A DNA stretch of 64,000 bases from contig CAVGLH010000001.1 in the NCBI GenBank assembly GCA_963630065.1, positions 2,282 through 66,281 on the forward strand. Direction: 5' to 3'. Both the position numbers and the translations under genes were made by a program. Under the pieces are notes generated by a model, which saw only the letters and a list, made by a program, of their open reading frames with translations, had not been told where the DNA came from and made no database searches. The DNA comes from Bacteroides fragilis (GTDB taxonomy: Bacteria; Bacteroidota; Bacteroidia; Bacteroidales; Bacteroidaceae). Positions 37,089 to 46,466 of the stretch are shown here, one piece after another. The first letter of the stretch is position 1. Every line of letters begins with the position of its first letter.

Positions 37089-37676
37089 TTACACCAAATA
37101 CATGATAGAACGATAAAGCTGCATCAACAGAACATAGAACAAGAAGAGAGGCGACAAAAGTCGGAAGCCGCTGTTCATCGCCACATAAATGTCTGTGACA
37201 CTGCGGAACCGCTCGCTCATCCAGCCATAGCTCGCTCCCATCAATATGAGCACAAGGCATACGTAGGGCACCAAGCTGCGAGTGAAACTGCTGGGCATCA
37301 ATCCCCCCAACACGTTCAGCAATATGGCATGGGGAACAACGGTAAGGGCCAGCATCAACAGAACAGCCATAAGAAACTCCACCAGAATGAGACGCAACGC
37401 TGTGCGCTGTCGGTATTCCGAACTGTCATAGCGCAGAACACCGCACTGTCTCACCATTCCGGCGGCAAAACTCGCCAGCACAATCCACACCAGCCAGGGC
37501 GTGGCCAGCATGTCCGTGAAATTGCCACAAAACCAACGGATTCCCTCGGCATTGGTCAGCGAGCGCGTGAATACATCGGGCATCGCAGCCATCAACACCC
37601 ACGAAGCCAGCACCACCAGCACCTGGGCCACAGCCAGTCCAAGAGCCAGACAAGCCAAAACTTTCTGTATTCTCAT
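37089..37676 (-). CDS. Miniature AbgT-like membrane protein (about 5 TM)
   Basis: RSLTNAEGIRWF resembles the AbgT N-terminal motif; 195 aa, hydrophobic; start at MRIQK (37676). Confidence 0.65.
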   Translation of the reverse strand: MRIQKVLACLALGLAVAQVLVVLASWVLMAAMPDVFTRSLTNAEGIRWFCGNFTDMLATPWLVWIVLASFAAGMVRQCGVLRYDSSEYRQRTALRLILVEFLMAVLLMLALTVVPHAILLNVLGGLMPSSFTRSLVPYVCLVLILMGASYGWMSERFRSVTDIYVAMNSGFRLLSPLFLFYVLLMQLYRSIMYLV

Positions 37677-37690
37677 GCTAAAAACTATCC

Positions 37691-38416
37691 TTATTCCGCA
37701 TCCGCCTGCAAGTTGTCGATATCGAGGATGCGCAGCTCGCACGCCCTCACCACGAGGCGGGTGGCATTCACTCCCACCCCGTTGTTGCCGTCGGGGAAAA
37801 GCTTCTGCACAAGCTCGGCCTGGCGCTTCTCCAAGCTCTTTACGCCGAAGGGCATGCCGCGAAGATTAGTAATCTGCTCTTTCGTATAGCCCAGGGCCAG
37901 ATGGCGCAGAAAACGCTCGTCGTATTCGTCAATCTCATAGTTGACCAAGGCCTCCTGTCGCATCAACTGCACGTTGACGCTGTGCTTGAACCGCTCCACG
38001 ATCTTTTGTAGGATGGGTTGATTGAACACCAGTTTCTTTCCGCCCATGCAGCTGGCCACGTCGCCGCGGGTCAAGAGTTCGCCGCTCTTCAGAATGATGC
38101 CGTCACAACCGGCGTCGAGCACATCTACCCAAAGTTTCTCGTTCAGAATCTCGCCCGTGAAGATGAGCACCTTCAAGGCCGGATATTGCTCCTTAGTCTG
38201 CCGGCAGATTTCCACGCCCACGGTGGTGGAGCCGCCCAGCCCCAGATCGAGCAGTACAAGGTCGGGCATCTGCTGCTTGATGAGCCGCCAATAGGACATC
38301 TCATTTTCGGCCGTTCCGATAATCTCGGCCTCGGGAATGTCGGTCTTGAAAATACCCTCCGTTCCCTTGAGTTCCAAGGGTACGTCTTCTACTATTATCA
38401 CCTTAAACTTTTCCAT
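37691..38416 (-). CDS. Response regulator, REC plus LuxR-like HTH (DUF5932-type)
   Basis: IIVED, LLDLGL, IFTG, ILKS REC motifs; C-terminal FLRHLALGYTKEQI...KSLEK; start at 38416 or 38446. Confidence 0.85.
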   Translation of the reverse strand: MEKFKVIIVEDVPLELKGTEGIFKTDIPEAEIIGTAENEMSYWRLIKQQMPDLVLLDLGLGGSTTVGVEICRQTKEQYPALKVLIFTGEILNEKLWVDVLDAGCDGIILKSGELLTRGDVASCMGGKKLVFNQPILQKIVERFKHSVNVQLMRQEALVNYEIDEYDERFLRHLALGYTKEQITNLRGMPFGVKSLEKRQAELVQKLFPDGNNGVGVNATRLVVRACELRILDIDNLQADAE

Positions 38417-38438
38417 TTTTTCCTTATCTCGTTTTGTT

Positions 38439-41400
38439 TTATTCATTTTTGCGTTTTTCCCCCGGCACCATCGCCTCTATCCTCAGACATCCACCCTCAC
38501 CCCTCGCAGCCTGGATACCGCAGCCGCGCAGATTGGTCATCTCGCCCATCTCCCTCACTATCTGCCGACAGAGCAGGTAGCGCAGGTCGCTGGTGAGCGG
38601 CGTAAATAGCTGAGCATGCAGCGAGGCATCGTAGTTCACGTCCCTCTGCTCCACATAGAGCTGGGCATAGCGCGAGTCCAGGCATCCGCTCGTTCCCAGC
38701 ACGGCGTTGCGCGAGTCGCCCTTCATTAGCTCGCCGAGCCAATGAAAGAGGAACTCGTCATACTTCACGTTTCCCTCCACCTGCTCCATCGCCTGGGCAC
38801 TGAGCATGGCATAGAGCGACTTATAATAGTCAACCAGCTCGGAGAGCGAGTCCACGTCGGTGGGGTTGCCGTCCACGAGCTGCCGGATGCGCGAGGGATA
38901 GTACATCGTCTCATGCTTGAGCGTGGAGAGGCAGTTGTCCAGCACCGAGTTGGAGATGTGCAGCTTGTCGTTCTCATACTCGGCCCTGTGCAGCTCGTCC
39001 TCCGCCAACTCCAGGTTCAGCTCCTCGCTGACCGCATCATTCACGCTCTGCCTCCTGGCCTTCTCCACCACGGAGAAGCGATAATTGAGCACATGGCGAT
39101 AGTAAAACAGATAGTAGGCAAGGGGCAGCTGTAACAGCAGCAACACGAGCAGTATCACGGCTACCGTCTTCGAGTTTTTCGACGACTGCATAGTGCGCAC
39201 GTAGTCGTCGAGCGTGCGGTCGGCACTGCGTTCTCGGAAGAGCTGGGTATACACCTTGTTGTTACTCTCATAGAGCGTCCACCTGTGCAGGGCCAGGGCC
39301 GCCACGGCACTCTCATTGCGCAGGTCGAGGATCACGTCATAGCTGGTGGGCAGCCCGTCATGAAACCACTTAATCTCGGCGGCCTCGCCCACCTGCGGAT
39401 TCCTCACCATCAGGTATTTGCCATCCGGATGACGCGACAGGTAATATTGGTTGAGATAGTGACGCGCCGAGTCGGCGAAGGAGAGTGTGCGCTCGTAGGT
39501 GGCATTGATGTTGCTGAAATAAGCACTGTCGGCGAAGGCATCGGCCCGGTCCAGAAGGGGCGATGCGGCTGCTTTCTCCCCGTCATGACGATGCTGCACG
39601 CCAGAGGCCTTGTTGGCCCAGCCACTCATGGGCACCAGGAAGAGCACAAGGCCAAGAAGTAAAGTCCCCACCACCTTGCGCCGCAAGCCGCAGGGCAGGC
39701 GGAAGGAAAAATTCGTGCCACGTCCCTCCTCGCTCTCGGCCCTTATCTGGCACACTGCGAAGAGGCTGCTCATCTTTTTGTATTTCTCGATGATGCCCTT
39801 GCAGTTGAGGAGTCCAAAGCCATGCCCTCCCGTATAGGTGCGGTCGAAGACATGGGACAGTTCCTCCTCGCTCATTCCTGCCCCTGTGTCGGAGATGGTT
39901 ATTTCCACATATCCCCCTTTCCCGACGGTCTCAACGGCCTGTGCACCCACCGACACCCGGCCTCCCGAGGGGGTAAACTTGCGGGCGTTGTCGGCCATGG
40001 TATTGATCATGAATAGCGTGAGAGTGCGATCGGCCTTCACCCATGCGTCTGTGGGCTCCACGTCCAGACTGATGCCCTTCATCTGGAAGCTCATCTTGCC
40101 CTTGGCCACGATGTCGAAGAGCAGCTGCAGCGGGAAACTCTCGATGCGGAGGCTCAGGCTACCCTGGCGCATCTGTATCCACTGGGTGAGCACCTCGTTG
40201 TATTGGTTAATCTTGGCGGCCAGCTCAGAGATATACTGGTAGCGCTCCCTTCTCACTGTCTCGCTCTCCCCGCCCTCGCGCAGGCGGTTCACCTCCAGTA
40301 TCATGCGGTCGATGAAGGGCGTGATGCTATTCACGAGCGACACCTTGGCCCGCTGCTCCAGATTGCGTTTCTTGCCCTGCTCTATGTGCTGGTTGGTCAC
40401 GGCTAGCTGCTCCAGCACCTCCTCCTTCTTCTCCCTCAACTCATTGATTTTCCTCTCGTTGTCCCGTTTCCATTCCCTCAGTGGGGAGAGCAGGTCATCG
40501 ATGGTTTTCTTCTTCAGATTCTTGCGCTTCATGCGGTCGAACACCAAGAGGAGCCCCAGCAGCAGCACAATCATCCCCACCACAGCCGTAATCATCCAGT
40601 TGAGCTGGGCGGCGTTGGTTTCCAGCAGGGCCGCCCGGGCCTCCAACTGGCGGTCTTGGCGCGACATTTCCTGCAGGTCGAGATAAATGTTGCGATTGTA
40701 GTCACTCTTGGGCTTGTCGTCTACGGCGGAATATACGAGGCTCAGCCGCTCCCGGATGGAAGCCACGAGGTCGGGGGCCTGGCAGATGGCCGAGTTGTCG
40801 TCGAGGGCATGGTTAAGGCATTCAGCCGCAGAGGCGTAATCGCCTATCACCCAAAAACATTCGGCCAGTGTGCGGTAAGCACCGGCCGTCTGGTAAACGT
40901 CGCCATAGGAGGAAAAAAGGTTGAGAGCCCTCTGCGCCAGGTTGCCGGCCAGCAAATGCTGAGGCATCTGCTCAGTGTTGAGATATTGGAAAGCAGGCAA
41001 GTTGTTTTTCACCAGAAAATCGCTCACTTCCCCTTTCTGGAGGTGCTCGCTGATGGCCTGCAAGGCGTTGGCCTGCCAGTAGGGATAGGGGTTCTTGGAA
41101 TTGCTGGCCAGCATATAGCATTCAATCAGGCGGTCGAACTCCAGCTGGTTGATTTCATTGACGCTCCCGTTGACATAGGCTCCACCGGAGCCGAAGTTGT
41201 AAAGATAGTTGAGATACTGGGCCGTGTCTTGCTCCAGCTCGTCGGCATCCAAGTGGCCGAGGGCCTGCTGCATGGGTGCATCGAGACCCACGTAATAAAA
41301 ATAAGTGGCATCTACGATGTCAAATTCCGACTTGGCGTAGACGGCTCGGTGCTGCTCCCTAGGAGGCAGGGTACTGGCCTCCTCGCCTATCCTGCGCAGT

Positions 41401-41810
41401 CGCTGCTTTGCCTTCTCGCGATAAGAATAAAAGTCTTTGTTGTGGGCCTCTCGCTGGCAGAGGCGCATACTCTGCACGTCGGCGATGAGGATTTCTATCT
41501 GGTGGTCGCTCACCTCGCCCACCTTCTCCAACCATTGCTTGGCCTTGTTATAGTCCATCTTGGCCATAGCCACAAAGGCCAAGTTGTTGCAGGCCTCGGC
41601 ATAGCCTGCGGGATAGTCGTCGGCAAGTCTCAAGGCTTTATAGGCCAGCAGCTTGGTGGAGTCTAGGTTACGGTAATGATAGGCATAGGAAAGAGCGTTC
41701 AGCCTATCCACCTCGCCCTTATGCGAGGGCGAACAAGCCGAAAAACAAGAAGCCGCCATCGCCACCGAGGCGATGGCGGCAAAGATTCTATCAAAATAAA
41801 TCTTGATCAA
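38439..41810 (-). CDS. Large tandem sensor histidine kinase-like protein (DUF5112/DUF5113-type)
   Basis: N-terminal signal with FSAC; TPR-like helices; TM; HATPase boxes (DNARKFT, DTGAGM, GHGFGL, GRGTNF); two more hydrophobic segments; KHE His box near the C-terminus; TTG start uncertain. Confidence 0.85.
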   Translation of the reverse strand: MIKIYFDRIFAAIASVAMAASCFSACSPSHKGEVDRLNALSYAYHYRNLDSTKLLAYKALRLADDYPAGYAEACNNLAFVAMAKMDYNKAKQWLEKVGEVSDHQIEILIADVQSMRLCQREAHNKDFYSYREKAKQRLRRIGEEASTLPPREQHRAVYAKSEFDIVDATYFYYVGLDAPMQQALGHLDADELEQDTAQYLNYLYNFGSGGAYVNGSVNEINQLEFDRLIECYMLASNSKNPYPYWQANALQAISEHLQKGEVSDFLVKNNLPAFQYLNTEQMPQHLLAGNLAQRALNLFSSYGDVYQTAGAYRTLAECFWVIGDYASAAECLNHALDDNSAICQAPDLVASIRERLSLVYSAVDDKPKSDYNRNIYLDLQEMSRQDRQLEARAALLETNAAQLNWMITAVVGMIVLLLGLLLVFDRMKRKNLKKKTIDDLLSPLREWKRDNERKINELREKKEEVLEQLAVTNQHIEQGKKRNLEQRAKVSLVNSITPFIDRMILEVNRLREGGESETVRRERYQYISELAAKINQYNEVLTQWIQMRQGSLSLRIESFPLQLLFDIVAKGKMSFQMKGISLDVEPTDAWVKADRTLTLFMINTMADNARKFTPSGGRVSVGAQAVETVGKGGYVEITISDTGAGMSEEELSHVFDRTYTGGHGFGLLNCKGIIEKYKKMSSLFAVCQIRAESEEGRGTNFSFRLPCGLRRKVVGTLLLGLVLFLVPMSGWANKASGVQHRHDGEKAAASPLLDRADAFADSAYFSNINATYERTLSFADSARHYLNQYYLSRHPDGKYLMVRNPQVGEAAEIKWFHDGLPTSYDVILDLRNESAVAALALHRWTLYESNNKVYTQLFRERSADRTLDDYVRTMQSSKNSKTVAVILLVLLLLQLPLAYYLFYYRHVLNYRFSVVEKARRQSVNDAVSEELNLELAEDELHRAEYENDKLHISNSVLDNCLSTLKHETMYYPSRIRQLVDGNPTDVDSLSELVDYYKSLYAMLSAQAMEQVEGNVKYDEFLFHWLGELMKGDSRNAVLGTSGCLDSRYAQLYVEQRDVNYDASLHAQLFTPLTSDLRYLLCRQIVREMGEMTNLRGCGIQAARGEGGCLRIEAMVPGEKRKNE

Positions 41811-41828: not shown

Positions 41829-42500
41829 TTATCCGCGGGCCTTGGCGATATAGCCGAGAGCCTCCTGGCACTTTGCGGTGATTGCAGCCCAATCCTGAGC
41901 GGCCACGGTATCCTTGGGGAAGAGCTTGGAACCCATGCCCACGCAGAGCACGCCAGCCTTGATCCAAGGAGTGAGGTTCTCCTCTGTAGGCTCCACGGCA
42001 CCCGTCACCATGATGTTGCTCCAGCGCAGAGGAGCCATCACATTCTTGACAAACGAAGGACCGCCCACATTGCCTGCGGGGAACACCTTTGTAACGTCGC
42101 AGCCAGCGGCCTGGGCGTTGTTGATTTCCGTCACCGAACCACAACCTGGCGAATAAGGCACCAAGCGACGGTTGCAGACGGGAGCAATCTCGGGGTTGAA
42201 GTTAGGACCAACGATGAAGTTGGCGCCCAACTGGAGATACAAGGCAGCCGTGCCTGCGTCAATGACTGTACCAGCTCCAAGAATCAACTCGGGGCACTCC
42301 TTGTCGGCCCACTTCACCAACTCACCGAAAATTTCGTGGGCGAAATCGCCACGATTGGTGAACTCGAACACGCGAACTCCACCCTCGTAGCAAGCCTTGA
42401 TTACGTTTTTACAAACCTCTACGTCCTTATTGAAGAACACAGGTACCATACCAGTCTCTTTCATGGCTGCCATCACCTGCATTTTGCTAAACTTTGCCAT
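41829..42500 (-). CDS. eda: KHG/KDPG aldolase
   Basis: EFTNRG, GAGTV, FIVGP, PGC..VTE, KVFPA, TGAV, GMGS. Confidence 0.93.
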   Translation of the reverse strand: MAKFSKMQVMAAMKETGMVPVFFNKDVEVCKNVIKACYEGGVRVFEFTNRGDFAHEIFGELVKWADKECPELILGAGTVIDAGTAALYLQLGANFIVGPNFNPEIAPVCNRRLVPYSPGCGSVTEINNAQAAGCDVTKVFPAGNVGGPSFVKNVMAPLRWSNIMVTGAVEPTEENLTPWIKAGVLCVGMGSKLFPKDTVAAQDWAAITAKCQEALGYIAKARG

Positions 42501-42535
42501 TATTTTTATGTTTTATGTATAATGTAAATGTTTGA

Positions 42536-43558
42536 TTATCGCTGTACGCGGCCATTTGCGTTGCCACCGGCCAGGCTCTCCACCTCGTCTACGGAAACCA
42601 GGTTGAAATCGCCAGGGATAGTGTGCTTCAAGGCAGATGCAGCCACGGCAAACTCAAGAGCCTCGCCCTGAGTCTCCTTGGTCAAGAGACCGTGGATCAA
42701 ACCGCCAGAGAAAGAGTCGCCACCGCCCACGCGGTCGATGATGGGATTGATGTCGTAGTGCTTGCTCTGATAGAACTCCTTGCCATCATAGATAAGAGCC
42801 TTCCAACCGTTGTGAGTGGCCGAGAGTGATTCGCGGAGAGTGGAAACCACATACTTAAAGCCAAACTCCTTCATCATGCCCTGGAAGATACCATAGTAGC
42901 CCTCTGCATCTGTCTTGCCGCCCTCTACGTCGGCATCTGGCTTGAAGCCCAGACAGAGCTGCGCATCCTCCTCATTGCCGATGCATACGTCTACATACTG
43001 CATCAAGGGGCGCATCACGGAGATAGCCTTTTCCGATGTCCACAGCTTCTTGCGGAAGTTGAGATCTACCGACACCGTCACGCCATGACGCTTGGCAGCC
43101 TCGCAAGCCAACTTGGTAAGCTCTGCGGCCTTGTCACTGATGGCCGGGGTGATGCCGCTCCAGTGGAACCACTGTGCGCCCTCCATAATCTTGTCGAAGT
43201 CGAAATCAGATGGGTCGGCCTCTGCGATAGCGCTGTGGGCGCGGTCGTAAATCACCTTGGAAGGACGCATCGAAGCACCAGTCTCTGCATAATAGAGACC
43301 CACACGGTCACCACCACGGGCCACAAAGTCTGTATTCACGCCATAACGACGGAGACCGTTCACGGCAATCTGTCCAATCTCATGCTTTGGCAACTTTGAC
43401 ACAAAGTAAGCCTCATGCCCATAGTTGGCCAAGCTCACAGCCACGTTGGCCTCGCCACCGCCAGGGATGATGCGAAGTGACTCACTCTGAATGAAACGGT
43501 CGTTGCCCTCGGGTGACAAACGAAGCATAATCTCGCCTAATGTTACTACTTTAGCCAT
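42536..43558 (-). CDS. kdgK: 2-keto-3-deoxygluconate kinase (PfkB family)
   Basis: GEIMLRL, GGGEANVA, YDRAHSA, SGITPA, DLNFRKKLW, DRVGGGDSF; adjacent to eda. Confidence 0.92.
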   Translation of the reverse strand: MAKVVTLGEIMLRLSPEGNDRFIQSESLRIIPGGGEANVAVSLANYGHEAYFVSKLPKHEIGQIAVNGLRRYGVNTDFVARGGDRVGLYYAETGASMRPSKVIYDRAHSAIAEADPSDFDFDKIMEGAQWFHWSGITPAISDKAAELTKLACEAAKRHGVTVSVDLNFRKKLWTSEKAISVMRPLMQYVDVCIGNEEDAQLCLGFKPDADVEGGKTDAEGYYGIFQGMMKEFGFKYVVSTLRESLSATHNGWKALIYDGKEFYQSKHYDINPIIDRVGGGDSFSGGLIHGLLTKETQGEALEFAVAASALKHTIPGDFNLVSVDEVESLAGGNANGRVQR

Positions 43559-43696
43559 TGTTTGATAGTTTTAATTTATTGTTTTTATTTTGTTTGTTTA
43601 TAGTCGGAATCTATATTCGAGGGCAAAAATAACCATAATTTCTCGAATAAAGAAATAAAATCATATTTTTTTTTGTTTTTCGTGCAAAAAAATGGC

Positions 43697-43799
43697 TGTG
43701 CATTCGCACAATTCATTTTTTTGTTGTATTTTTGTGCCGAAATTAAGGTTTGTGGCCGAACACAACCAACCTTCTTAATACTAATTGGGTCGACGCACA
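43697..43799. promoter_or_regulatory. Three candidate LacI-family operators (TGTG-N6-CACA)
   Basis: TGTGCATTCGCACA 43697-43710, TGTGGCCGAACACA 43751-43764 and TGGGTCGACGCACA 43786-43799, around the TATTTTTG -7 element at 43727-43734. Confidence 0.6.
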
Positions 43800-43866
43800 G
43801 CGAGAACGAGACAAACCGACATTAATAAAAGGTTCGCGCGAAGCAAAGACCAACAGACAAGGAACT

Positions 43867-44931
43867 ATGGCCGAAAAAATCAGAATTAAGGATATCGCCG
43901 AGAGAGCCGGTGTATCGGTAGGCACAGTGGACAGAGTGCTCCACGACCGCCCCAACGTGTCGAAGCCGGCACGCGATAAGGTGGAGAAAGCCCTCAAAGA
44001 GATGAACTATCAGCCCAACATGTATGCCAGTGCCCTGGCATACAACAAATCGTATACCTTCTACATGCTTATCCCCAAGCACGAATCGGAGGCTTACTGG
44101 GAAGAGATTGAGGAGGGGGCGAAGAAATGCGAGGAGACCCGCCGCGACTTTCACATCGACGTGGGAATCACCTTTTTCGAGCGAAGCAACGAGGAGTCGT
44201 TTCGCAAGGCCGGGCTCGACATCCTGGCACAAGAGCCGGAAGGCGTCATCGTGGTTCCGTCGTCGTTGGAGGTGACGCGCGAGTTCACGGAAGCACTCCA
44301 CAAGAGAAGCATCCCCTTCATCCTCCTCGACTCCTACATGCCCGACCTGCGCCCCCTGTCCTTCTTCGGCCAGGATTCGTTCTGCTCGGGATTCTTTGCC
44401 GCCAAAATACTCATGATGATAGCGGCGAAAGAGACGGAGATCATGCTGATGAGACAGACCAAAGACGGAAGAGTGGTGAGCAAGCAGCAGGACAATCGAG
44501 AGGTGGGCTTCCGCCACTACATGCACGACCACTTCCCCAGCGTGAAGATCTTCGACCTCGACCTGCCGCTAAACGGGTCGCGCGCCGAATATGCCAAGAT
44601 GCTGGAGAAATACTTCGCCGACCACCCCGACACCCACCACTGCATCACCCTCACGTCGAAGGCCCACATCGTGGGCGACTTCCTGCTGAAGGCCAACCGC
44701 CGCGACGTGCAGATCATGGGCTATGACATGGTGGAGAAGAACGCCCGCTGCCTCAGGGAGGGCAGCATCTCCTTCCTCATCGCCCAGCATGCCTACATGC
44801 AGGGCTACTCGTGCGTGGAAACTCTCTTCCGGGCTATCGTGCTCAAAAAGAAGGTGACTCCGGTGAACTACATGCCCATCGAACTGCTCATGAAGGAGAA
44901 CGTGGACTTCTACAGAAGGACACAGTTGTAA
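43867..44931 (+). CDS. LacI-family regulator of the hexuronate/KDG genes (KdgR-like)
   Basis: IKDIAERAGVSVGTVDRVL HTH, YQPN..A..L hinge, sugar-binding domain; divergent from kdgK and upstream of uxaA; start at 43867. Confidence 0.9.
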   Translation: MAEKIRIKDIAERAGVSVGTVDRVLHDRPNVSKPARDKVEKALKEMNYQPNMYASALAYNKSYTFYMLIPKHESEAYWEEIEEGAKKCEETRRDFHIDVGITFFERSNEESFRKAGLDILAQEPEGVIVVPSSLEVTREFTEALHKRSIPFILLDSYMPDLRPLSFFGQDSFCSGFFAAKILMMIAAKETEIMLMRQTKDGRVVSKQQDNREVGFRHYMHDHFPSVKIFDLDLPLNGSRAEYAKMLEKYFADHPDTHHCITLTSKAHIVGDFLLKANRRDVQIMGYDMVEKNARCLREGSISFLIAQHAYMQGYSCVETLFRAIVLKKKVTPVNYMPIELLMKENVDFYRRTQL

Positions 44932-44969
44932 ATCGAGTATTATACATAAACTATAAAAACTATCTACAG

Positions 44970-46466
44970 ATGAAACTATCAAGCTTTATCAAAATCAACC
45001 CTGCCGACTCGGTAGTGGTTTGTCTGCGCCCCATGAAGAAGGGCGAGACCATTGAGGTGGATGGCAAGACCATCACCCTGCTGCAGGACACCCCTGCCGG
45101 ACACAAGGTGCTCATCGACGATGCACCCGAGGGAAAGGACATCATCAAGTATGGCTACCCTATCGGACACGCAAAAGCAGACCTGAAGGCAGGCGAATGG
45201 GTGAACGAGAACAACCTCAAGACCAACCTGGCCGGAACCTTGGAATACACCTACAACCCCGTGGGCGAGCAGCTGAGCATCGCCCAGGAGAATCGCTCGT
45301 TCAAGGGCTACGTGCGCAAGAACGGCGAGGTGGGCGTGAGAAACGAAATATGGGTGGTTCCCACCGTGGGCTGCGTGAACGGCGTGGCCGAGAAACTGGT
45401 GGAACTCCTGAAGAAGGAGACCGGATGCGAGGGCGTAGACGCCATCCATGCCTGGCACCACAACTTCGGTTGCTCCCAGCTCTCGGGCGACCACGAGAAC
45501 ACACGCAAGGTGTTGCGCGACATCTGCCTCCACCCCAACGCAGGTGCCGTATTGGTGCTCTCGCTGGGCTGTGAGAACAACCAGCCCGACGCCTTCATGG
45601 AAATGCTGGGCGACTATGACAATGACCGCATCAAGCTGCTCGTGACGCAAAAGGTGGAGGGTGACGAAGTAGAGGAGGGAATGAAAATCCTGCGCGACCT
45701 TTACCAAACTGCCAAGGCCGACAAGCGAGAGGATGTGCCGGTAAGCAAACTGCGCGTAGGCTTGAAATGCGGCGGATCAGACGGATTCAGCGGCATCACG
45801 GCCAACCCATTAGTGGGCGAGTTCAGCGACTGGCTGGTGGCCCAGGGCGGCACGAGCATCCTTACCGAGGTGCCGGAGATGTTTGGCGCGGAGACCATCT
45901 TGATGAACCGCTGCGAGAACAAGGAACTGTTCGACAAGACCGTACACCTCATCAATGACTTCAAGGAATACTTCCTCAGCCACGGCGAGCCTGTGGGTGA
46001 AAACCCATCACCGGGCAACAAGGCCGGCGGCATCTCTACCCTGGAGGACAAGGCACTGGGCTGCACCCAGAAATGCGGTCGCGCCCCTGTGAGCGGTGTA
46101 CTGCAATACGGCGACCGATTGGCGACCAACGGTTTGAACCTCCTCTCCGCCCCGGGCAACGACCTCGTGGCAGCCACAGCGTTGGCCTCGGCCGGATGCC
46201 AGCTCGTGCTCTTCACCACAGGCCGAGGCACCCCATTCGGCACCTTCGTGCCCACGATGAAAATTTCCACCAACAGCAATCTGGCCAAGAACAAGCCCAA
46301 CTGGATCGACTTCAACGCAGGCGAGCTGGTGGAAGGCACGGAGATGAAAGACCTCGTGAGCAAGTTTATCGACAAGATCATAGCCGTAGCAAGCGGCGAG
46401 GAAGCCCGCAACGAGTACAACGGCTATCGCGAAATCTCCATCTTCAAGAACGGAGTGACGCTTTAA
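44970..46466 (+). CDS. uxaA: Altronate dehydratase
   Basis: SAF domain (PAGHK, IIKYG.PIG), HNFGCSQ, SLGCENN, KCGGSD, ENPSPGNKAGG, FTTGRG; start at 44970. Confidence 0.93.
   Translation: MKLSSFIKINPADSVVVCLRPMKKGETIEVDGKTITLLQDTPAGHKVLIDDAPEGKDIIKYGYPIGHAKADLKAGEWVNENNLKTNLAGTLEYTYNPVGEQLSIAQENRSFKGYVRKNGEVGVRNEIWVVPTVGCVNGVAEKLVELLKKETGCEGVDAIHAWHHNFGCSQLSGDHENTRKVLRDICLHPNAGAVLVLSLGCENNQPDAFMEMLGDYDNDRIKLLVTQKVEGDEVEEGMKILRDLYQTAKADKREDVPVSKLRVGLKCGGSDGFSGITANPLVGEFSDWLVAQGGTSILTEVPEMFGAETILMNRCENKELFDKTVHLINDFKEYFLSHGEPVGENPSPGNKAGGISTLEDKALGCTQKCGRAPVSGVLQYGDRLATNGLNLLSAPGNDLVAATALASAGCQLVLFTTGRGTPFGTFVPTMKISTNSNLAKNKPNWIDFNAGELVEGTEMKDLVSKFIDKIIAVASGEEARNEYNGYREISIFKNGVTL

Follow-up and report, generated by a model that had tools for sequence, protein, structure and literature searches.

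A single open reading frame (ORF) of Bacteroides fragilis very likely encodes both halves of a divided histidine kinase, in which one module supplies the ATP site and the other the phosphorylated histidine of one fixed heterodimer. The ORF occupies positions 38439-41810 on the minus strand of the window, by which we mean the whole 64,000-nucleotide stretch analysed here (GenBank assembly GCA_963630065.1, contig CAVGLH010000001.1, positions 2,282 to 66,281 of the forward strand); it starts with TTG and specifies a tandem two-module sensor kinase of 1123 amino acids (Pfam DUF5112, DUF5113 and HATPase_c) whose nearest named relatives are found in Segatella and Prevotella. The explanation that we favour, at a probability of roughly 0.55, goes further and takes the product to be a receptor polyprotein, core to most Bacteroidaceae, that signal peptidase I or II cuts into half-kinases present 1:1, with one ATP site, one histidine and one sensor between them, and whose single-module ancestors survive in other Bacteroidales. 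At the level of sequence the duplication, the complementary losses, the signal-peptide-like joint between the modules and the intact adjoining regulator are all evident.

Complementary conservation of the two modules

Module 1 retains the catalytic side of a class I kinase and lacks its phospho-acceptor. In an alignment of 228 homologs, kept at less than 70% identity from 416, the N box residue Asn608, the G1 residues Asp641, Gly643 and Gly645, the G2 residue Gly666 and Gly698 are present in every row of catalytic ATP-binding domain 1 (39690-40145), and Gly664 of G2 in 227 of them, so that this domain (PF02518; HATPase_c at residues 601-707, E 4e-19) carries the N, G1 and G2 boxes by which class I kinases are recognised. 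The hairpin ahead of it (40167-40403), which resembles a DHp domain (for dimerization and histidine phosphotransfer), does not have the His followed by Asp or Glu that class I kinases place before an active domain; the equivalent residues are Asn494 (codon 40329-40331) and Ser495, and Pfam finds no HisKA match anywhere in the ORF.

Module 2 has the converse constitution. Its DHp hairpin (38775-39008) bears His966-Glu967, the His with an acidic neighbour that a class I dimer must hold somewhere, and His966 (codon 38913-38915) is His in 224 of the 225 rows with a residue there (three have gaps), the sole exception appearing frameshifted; some of the loci were retrieved by a pattern that includes His966, the protein homologs without such a pattern. 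It is the only near-invariant histidine of the protein, the runner-up, column 951, having His in 161 of 222 rows. Degenerate catalytic domain 2 (38463-38765) keeps the GHKL fold and has lost the ATP boxes: in a set selected for KHE, DxGxG occurs in three of 223 module 2 tails and an N-box-like motif in one. A count of GxGL in module 2 (80/223), most likely reflecting an RGCGI stretch, was not used. AlphaFold models module 2 as a helical hairpin with an alpha/beta domain (predicted local distance difference test, pLDDT, 89), and its fold matches the catalytic domains of kinases, as with MprB (Z 10.0, root-mean-square deviation 2.2, 98 residues aligned); a CpxA match to the kinase catalytic fold reaches E 2.6e-5, and when module 2 was searched as a profile against solved sequences, no match was better than E 0.036.

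An initial annotation of this DNA had proposed that the ATPase of module 1 phosphorylates the His of module 2. The motifs on which it relied are all present, namely FSAC, the first transmembrane segment (TM1) WMITAVVGMIVLLLGLLLVF, the His-free RAKVSLVNSITPFIDRMI and DNARKFT, DTGAG, GHGFGL and GRGTNF in module 1, with the third transmembrane segment (TM3), STLKHETMYYP around His966 and YLLCRQIVRE in module 2. What it had named as fatal to the idea was not found: module 1 has no conserved phospho-accepting His (15/228), the KHE His is not variable (224/225), and the predicted topology does not put the HATPase and the KHE segment on opposite sides of the membrane.

Predicted pairing of module 1 with module 2

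Structure prediction and covariation both favour a pairing of module 1 with module 2. When the two cytoplasmic halves were modelled together with ATP and Mg, the complex scored 0.67 against 0.02 for the best control, the mark used being one that 116 of 157 solved pairs and two of 215 mismatched pairs reach; the runs agreed in at least 96% of contacts, with partner pLDDT of at least 82. In mean-field covariation (411 rows, 246 effective), the predicted interface contained seven of the ten highest-ranked inter-module pairs and 13 of the highest 20, against an expectation of 14%. With the hairpins alone, direct coupling put 18 of the top 30 pairs between modules and none of 30 once module 2 was permuted. 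Parallel diagonals (476-943, 483-954, 486-958) and antiparallel ones (493-1004, 494-1008, 507-993, 532-976) connect the hairpins, and the coupled pairs trace a predicted four-helix bundle of hairpin 1 and hairpin 2, the arrangement that the initial annotation had asked about. Further, coupling 568-964 joins domain 1 to the His helix, and 484-1080 and 486-1089 join domain 2 to hairpin 1. The periplasmic parts showed only weak covariation with each other, which is not interpreted. Together with single-module relatives that hold both halves, described below, these results lend support to phosphorylation of module 2 by module 1.

The joint between the modules

The second hydrophobic segment that the initial annotation had noted behaves like a signal peptide and not like a membrane helix. 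Across the family this joint follows the last Pro of domain 1 with G-hydrophobic-x-R/K, a short hydrophobic core and small residues, and then AxA, an Ala-Gln site or a lipobox Cys; in this copy (39615-39683) it reads RRK, a short core and P-M-S-G-W-A, with a predicted type-I cut after Ala732. The joints of 227 homologs were compared with 355 N-terminal signal-like stretches, picked regardless of cleavage motif, and 419 internal transmembrane segments from the kinase's own genome. Joint and N-terminal signals each have nine hydrophobic residues in the core and internal transmembrane segments 13; a cleavage motif is present at 0.75, 0.78 and 0.39 respectively, an Ala-Gln site at 0.22, 0.37 and 0.02, and a lipobox at 0.18, 0.34 and 0.07. 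By the same measures TM1 (40539-40601), with a median of 17 hydrophobic residues, a KD19 of 2.96 and a cleavage motif in 33%, and TM3 (39102-39167), with 15 and 20%, are true membrane helices.

Similarly, Lys or Arg stands at Pro+5 in 80% of 155 joints, so that the basic n-region and short core of a Sec signal are both present, as is a lipobox or a type-I site, the latter with Gln at +1 in part of the joints. In a shuffle test, for which 155 of 228 rows could be parsed, the joint held 32 lipoboxes against 12 ± 3 in shuffled sequences and 30 Ala-Gln sites against 13 ± 3; part of the lipobox calls, about 7%, is due to chance. The lipobox requires 32 changes on a tree of 223 rows, and random pairs of the segment share 16% identity; the signal character is therefore maintained rather than inherited, the joint switching between lipoprotein and type-I forms across lineages. 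According to two studies, Ala-Gln is typical of type-I signal peptidase substrates in Bacteroidetes (PMC5837995), and short hydrophobic cores separate cleaved signals from anchors in the endoplasmic reticulum system (PMC2120157). Because the joint scores as an N-terminal signal and switches between lipoprotein and type-I forms, the kinase is probably a cleaved polyprotein, and we put divided chemistry combined with signal peptidase cleavage at the joint at somewhat better than an even chance.

The same divided chemistry in an uncut chain, the joint serving as a signal-anchor, is the single-chain pseudo-heterodimer that the initial annotation envisaged. It is the strongest competitor and nonetheless the less likely arrangement. 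The uncharged run of the joint, at 18 residues, would suffice to span the membrane, the topology works without cleavage, and 46 of 227 joints show no cut site recognisable by the rules used, which counts also against the cleaved form. Against it, the joint keeps cleavage motifs as often as real signals do and switches type across lineages. Moreover, a median of six residues separates the end of domain 1 from the core of the joint, and His966 lies 63 residues below TM3 (family median 111), so that by a helix-rise estimate, which uses no coordinates, domain 1, if anchored by an uncut joint, would be kept at a distance from His966 and its reach strained. The predicted divided core of the earlier proposal passed each computational check applied to it, and its permanent single chain is doubtful, since the joint resembles a cleavable signal peptide.

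Single-module relatives and origin by duplication

By profile comparison the two modules are homologous, diverged copies of one sensor kinase: hhalign aligns their sensor stalk and transmembrane helix with probability 95.5 (E 1.5e-8) and their catalytic domains with 97.6, and finds no match between the two DHp hairpins taken alone (probability 0.5). A weak DUF5932 match in another family led to a 710-amino-acid single-module kinase adjoining a similar regulator. With this kinase as query, 416 proteins were found at E 1e-15; in the 26 that were aligned, from 120 listed matches, His-Asp, N box, DxGxG and G2 are all present. Of their motifs, module 1 has kept ITPF, which follows the His, together with the ATP boxes; module 2 has kept CLS..H[DE] and, at the C-terminus, II..HD..RGC.I (profile probability 99.3). 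These so far undescribed DUF5112 kinases of other Bacteroidales, about 700 amino acids long (L164, P0348, P0431-P0467) have in common with the tandem form a lipoprotein signal, a TPR (tetratricopeptide repeat) sensor, a transmembrane helix, the family motifs and an adjoining DUF5932-type regulator, and differ in having His and ATP boxes in one module and no duplication. Since all 26 hold both halves, sequence comparison indicates that the functions were divided after duplication, by complementary loss.

Among 401 genomes of the order, full single-module forms were found in two. A quick tree built from 83 rows sets module 1, module 2 and the singles each on its own side of a branch (SH-aLRT 99), without a settled order among the three. 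At L164:10733-12862 the H box of the single-module kinase, RHD-x-[STN]-P, is atypical; its DUF5932-like regulator is at L164:9897-10772. Two further relatives were seen: a 927-amino-acid kinase of another family with the same sensor and an ordinary SHE H box (L180:148-2928), and a 415-amino-acid sensor-only ORF (L183) in a genome, G617, that yielded neither module 2 nor the regulator.

Proposed mechanism and remaining alternatives

In the favoured account, Sec would export sensor 1 until TM1 halts transfer, the joint would restart export of the periplasmic stub until TM3 halts it, and both kinase halves would be left in the cytoplasm. Signal peptidase I, or Lgt and signal peptidase II where the joint has a lipobox, would cut after the joint, yielding two subunits 1:1 and releasing catalytic domain 1 from its six-residue membrane tether. 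Ligand would bind the single full TPR sensor, domain 1 would phosphorylate His966 in trans, and the phosphate would pass to Asp67 of the regulator, which would control transcription, perhaps including that of the AbgT-family gene.

Several observations weigh against this account. A His is found at the module 1 acceptor position, 494, in 15 of 228 homologs, and His-Asp in three. The context of His966, H-E-T-M-Y-Y-P, is without the Pro at +5 or Thr/Asn at +4 of the usual kinase H-box, and phosphatase activity is consequently not accounted for. The complex score may stem from likeness to solved kinase dimers, the alignment behind it overlaps the covariation set so that the two are not independent, and the bundle diagonals were defined after the complex model and the first covariation run had been viewed. 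At the joint, the loose [AVS]xA motif is not above shuffle (83 against 79 ± 5), and the genome control sets were built from crude six-frame ORFs. Finally, in the tree module 1 branches closer to the outgroup than module 2 does (support 87, with long branches), and the tree alone is therefore no proof of duplication of a single form.

Of the readings that dispense with phosphotransfer from module 1 to module 2, the foremost makes module 2 a phosphotransferase of the ChpT/Spo0B kind, loaded by the receiver of another kinase, and module 1 a non-catalytic, nucleotide-binding regulator like DivL. The joining of a His-DHp to a dead catalytic fold in module 2, the presence of hybrid kinases in the genome and the fact that DivL is the best solved sequence match of module 1 (E 1.3e-9) all speak for it. 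We nevertheless consider it improbable: all ATP boxes of domain 1 are invariant, coupling 568-964 sets domain 1 at the His helix, no partner kinase is linked in 120 loci, and the single-module relatives, which adjoin the same type of regulator, are ordinary kinases. Still less credible is an ordinary homodimeric kinase in module 1, acting via another residue, with module 2 as an accessory or inhibitor in the manner of RetS/GacS; candidate histidines do occur at 494, at 505 (68/227) and at 475 (101/226), but they are not conserved, Asn494 and Leu505 stand in this copy, and His494 is scattered, needing nine changes on the tree, against a near-invariant His966-Glu967. In L141, P0264 and P0269 His-Asp stands at the module 1 acceptor position besides His966, and these are possible two-His variants. 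Separate production of module 2 from an internal start just ahead of the joint can be set aside as very improbable, for although TTG at Leu709 precedes a complete signal-like stretch in this copy and a few short database proteins (P0545, P0548, either fragments or rare split genes) start with such a stretch at the joint, comparison of 125 distinct segments shows no conserved start codon, the column often being ATT, ATC, ATA or GTA, and most of the 120 short matches listed, of 505, begin at scattered positions like fragments.

Sensors, regulator and distribution

The ORF opens with a lipoprotein signal (41733-41810; lipobox FSAC) whose Cys26 is Cys in 190 of the 201 homologs with a residue at that position. 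Periplasmic sensor 1 follows (residues 27-403, 40602-41732; Pfam DUF5112 at 34-299, TPR at 284-337), modelled by AlphaFold as a TPR-type alpha-solenoid with pLDDT 95.7. Its best fold match is APPBP2 (Z 26.3, root-mean-square deviation 3.5, 327 aligned), with MalT domain III (Z 23.7) and Rap and NprR (Z 18-19) behind; the predicted TPR fold names no ligand. The second periplasmic part (39168-39563; DUF5113 at 752-905) has a median of 138 residues against 377 for the first, and by hhalign is homologous only to the stalk, the membrane-near third of sensor 1. Given its shortness and its match to the stalk alone, a single input is more probable than two, and the integration of two signals by two sensor domains, as initially suggested, finds no support. 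Homologs of the Bacteroides type (L118-L157, 1400-1525 amino acids) have extra cytoplasmic inserts below TM1 and TM3 whose lengths correlate (r 0.77); both have been lost in the lineage of the window, as has the first helix of domain 2. An insert labelled GAF-like by resemblance has been lost unequally below the two helices, which the proposed mechanism does not explain.

The cognate response regulator (37691-38446, minus strand) overlaps the kinase stop and consists of a receiver, with Asp67 at 38246-38248, and DUF5932. Where a locus has room for it, it lies directly downstream of the kinase (78 of 78 and 39 of 40 loci); in the one exception (L182/L188, G624:C13) it is about 3.5 kb away on the opposite strand. 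All 130 regulators compared have Glu20, Asp21, Asp67, Thr97 and Lys120, as expected of an intact partner. A shortened AbgT-family membrane protein (37089-37742, minus strand) is the conserved third gene, following in 74 of 74 and 37 of 40 loci. It is a full-length transporter (484-506 amino acids) in eight of 37 family-wide loci, for example L118:1190-2707 and L120:1199-2650, and elsewhere has a conserved short form of 190-250 amino acids.

An assembly chimera or strain-specific fusion was excluded, since both modules share one ORF in every one of the 80 loci that a module 2 query retrieved and of the 40 from other genera; a split two-gene form was seen in none of these 120, although a rare one may exist, given the few short database proteins that start at the joint. 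In one locus compared (L057) the ORF is broken near the N-terminus and not between the modules. At E 1e-15 the kinase has matches in 203 of 250 other Bacteroidaceae genomes (of two weak matches checked, one was a lone sensor and one a catalytic-domain match), and at E 1e-20 the order's other families gave none in 298 genomes. Module 2 was not found in 22 of 32 hand-picked genomes of the family, mostly chosen for lacking the first match. Among 14 control genomes, the DUF5113 and DUF5932 models match in B. thetaiotaomicron. The system is present in most of the Bacteroides, Phocaeicola and Prevotella relatives sampled, and an atlas search returned only the kinase family's own clusters above 0.9.

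Upstream, at 41829-46466, lies a cluster with a KDPG aldolase (Pfam) and what we take by resemblance to be kdgK, a LacI-type regulator and uxaA. It is linked to the kinase mainly in Prevotella-type genomes and is therefore probably not its regulon. Some 50 nucleotides after the eda stop, where the codons specify the N-terminal signal peptide of the kinase (41752-41780, minus strand), lies a 12-bp hairpin with a U-tract (z -4.9). It occurs in 48 of the 67 Prevotella-type loci that have eda immediately upstream, in one of 26 without eda there and in none of 47 from other genera. In 36 loci selected for having the hairpin, two-sided changes occur at 13 of 13 pairs by named-pair counting; RNAalifold gave no consensus for it. 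The hairpin is probably the kdgK-eda terminator, in which case kinase expression would depend on read-through.

Related systems and significance

Literature searches returned no description of this system, although papers naming the gene only by its B. thetaiotaomicron locus tag would be missed, and for the system's three DUFs the literature searched gave a single passing mention, of DUF5112. The initial annotation's remark that no mechanism was described needs amending, for one of the same type is known in two-gene form. In FasB/FasC of group A Streptococcus, two kinase-like subunits heterodimerise, one providing the kinase domain and the other an essential His (FasC H246), the kinase domain of the His-bearer is dispensable and one sensor suffices (PMC12675982). 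The likeness, which here rests on conservation, is that ATPase and His come from different subunits. FasB and FasC differ in being two genes with six-transmembrane sensors and a ComE-like regulator, FasB still having candidate histidines and FasC a recognisable HATPase (PMC12675982). The present kinase is one ORF (120/120 loci) with a TPR sensor on the ATPase half, single transmembrane helices, a DUF5932 regulator, a fully eroded second catalytic domain and a signal-peptide joint; by analogy it may work like FasB/FasC, of which it is no member.

With class I sensor kinases (CpxA, WalK, HK853; DHp and HATPase_c) it shares the fold of both cytoplasmic halves and an adjacent receiver, and departs from them in its lack of a HisKA match, its built-in asymmetry and a dimer with a single His and a single ATP site in place of two of each. 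ChpT and Spo0B, separate homodimeric relay proteins with a His-DHp and a degenerate catalytic fold, resemble module 2, but they stand alone and are soluble, whereas module 2 is fused, membrane-bound after TM3 and paired with module 1. Likewise the pseudokinase DivL, a separate homodimeric relay protein with a His-less DHp and a catalytic fold, resembles module 1, which is here fused and membrane-bound. Polyproteins cut by signal peptidase, namely viral glycoprotein precursors and reportedly Bradyrhizobium FbcH, offer the parallel of one ORF with an internal signal yielding two subunits of one complex, though they are not signalling proteins. We know of no such polyprotein whose joint switches between type-I and lipoprotein forms, and a bacterial signalling polyprotein was not found in the literature searched. 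What is new, on the evidence of its sequence features, is a second hydrophobic segment that reads as a signal peptide, probably making the product a polyprotein, and this manner of assembling a two-part receptor from a single gene has no description in the literature searched. The kinase is real and conserved, a variant of split kinases with a probable polyprotein twist.

On the established view histidine kinases are homodimers that act asymmetrically, and this asymmetry is hard to study because their protomers are identical. The hard-wired asymmetry of this family would make cis and trans phosphorylation and one-site activity testable by single mutations. If the joint is cut, the product would be a bacterial signalling polyprotein, and gene annotation would be missing mature proteins that lie behind internal signals. 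More broadly, as the intact single form and the divided form both exist, the family is a clear example of complementary loss after duplication.

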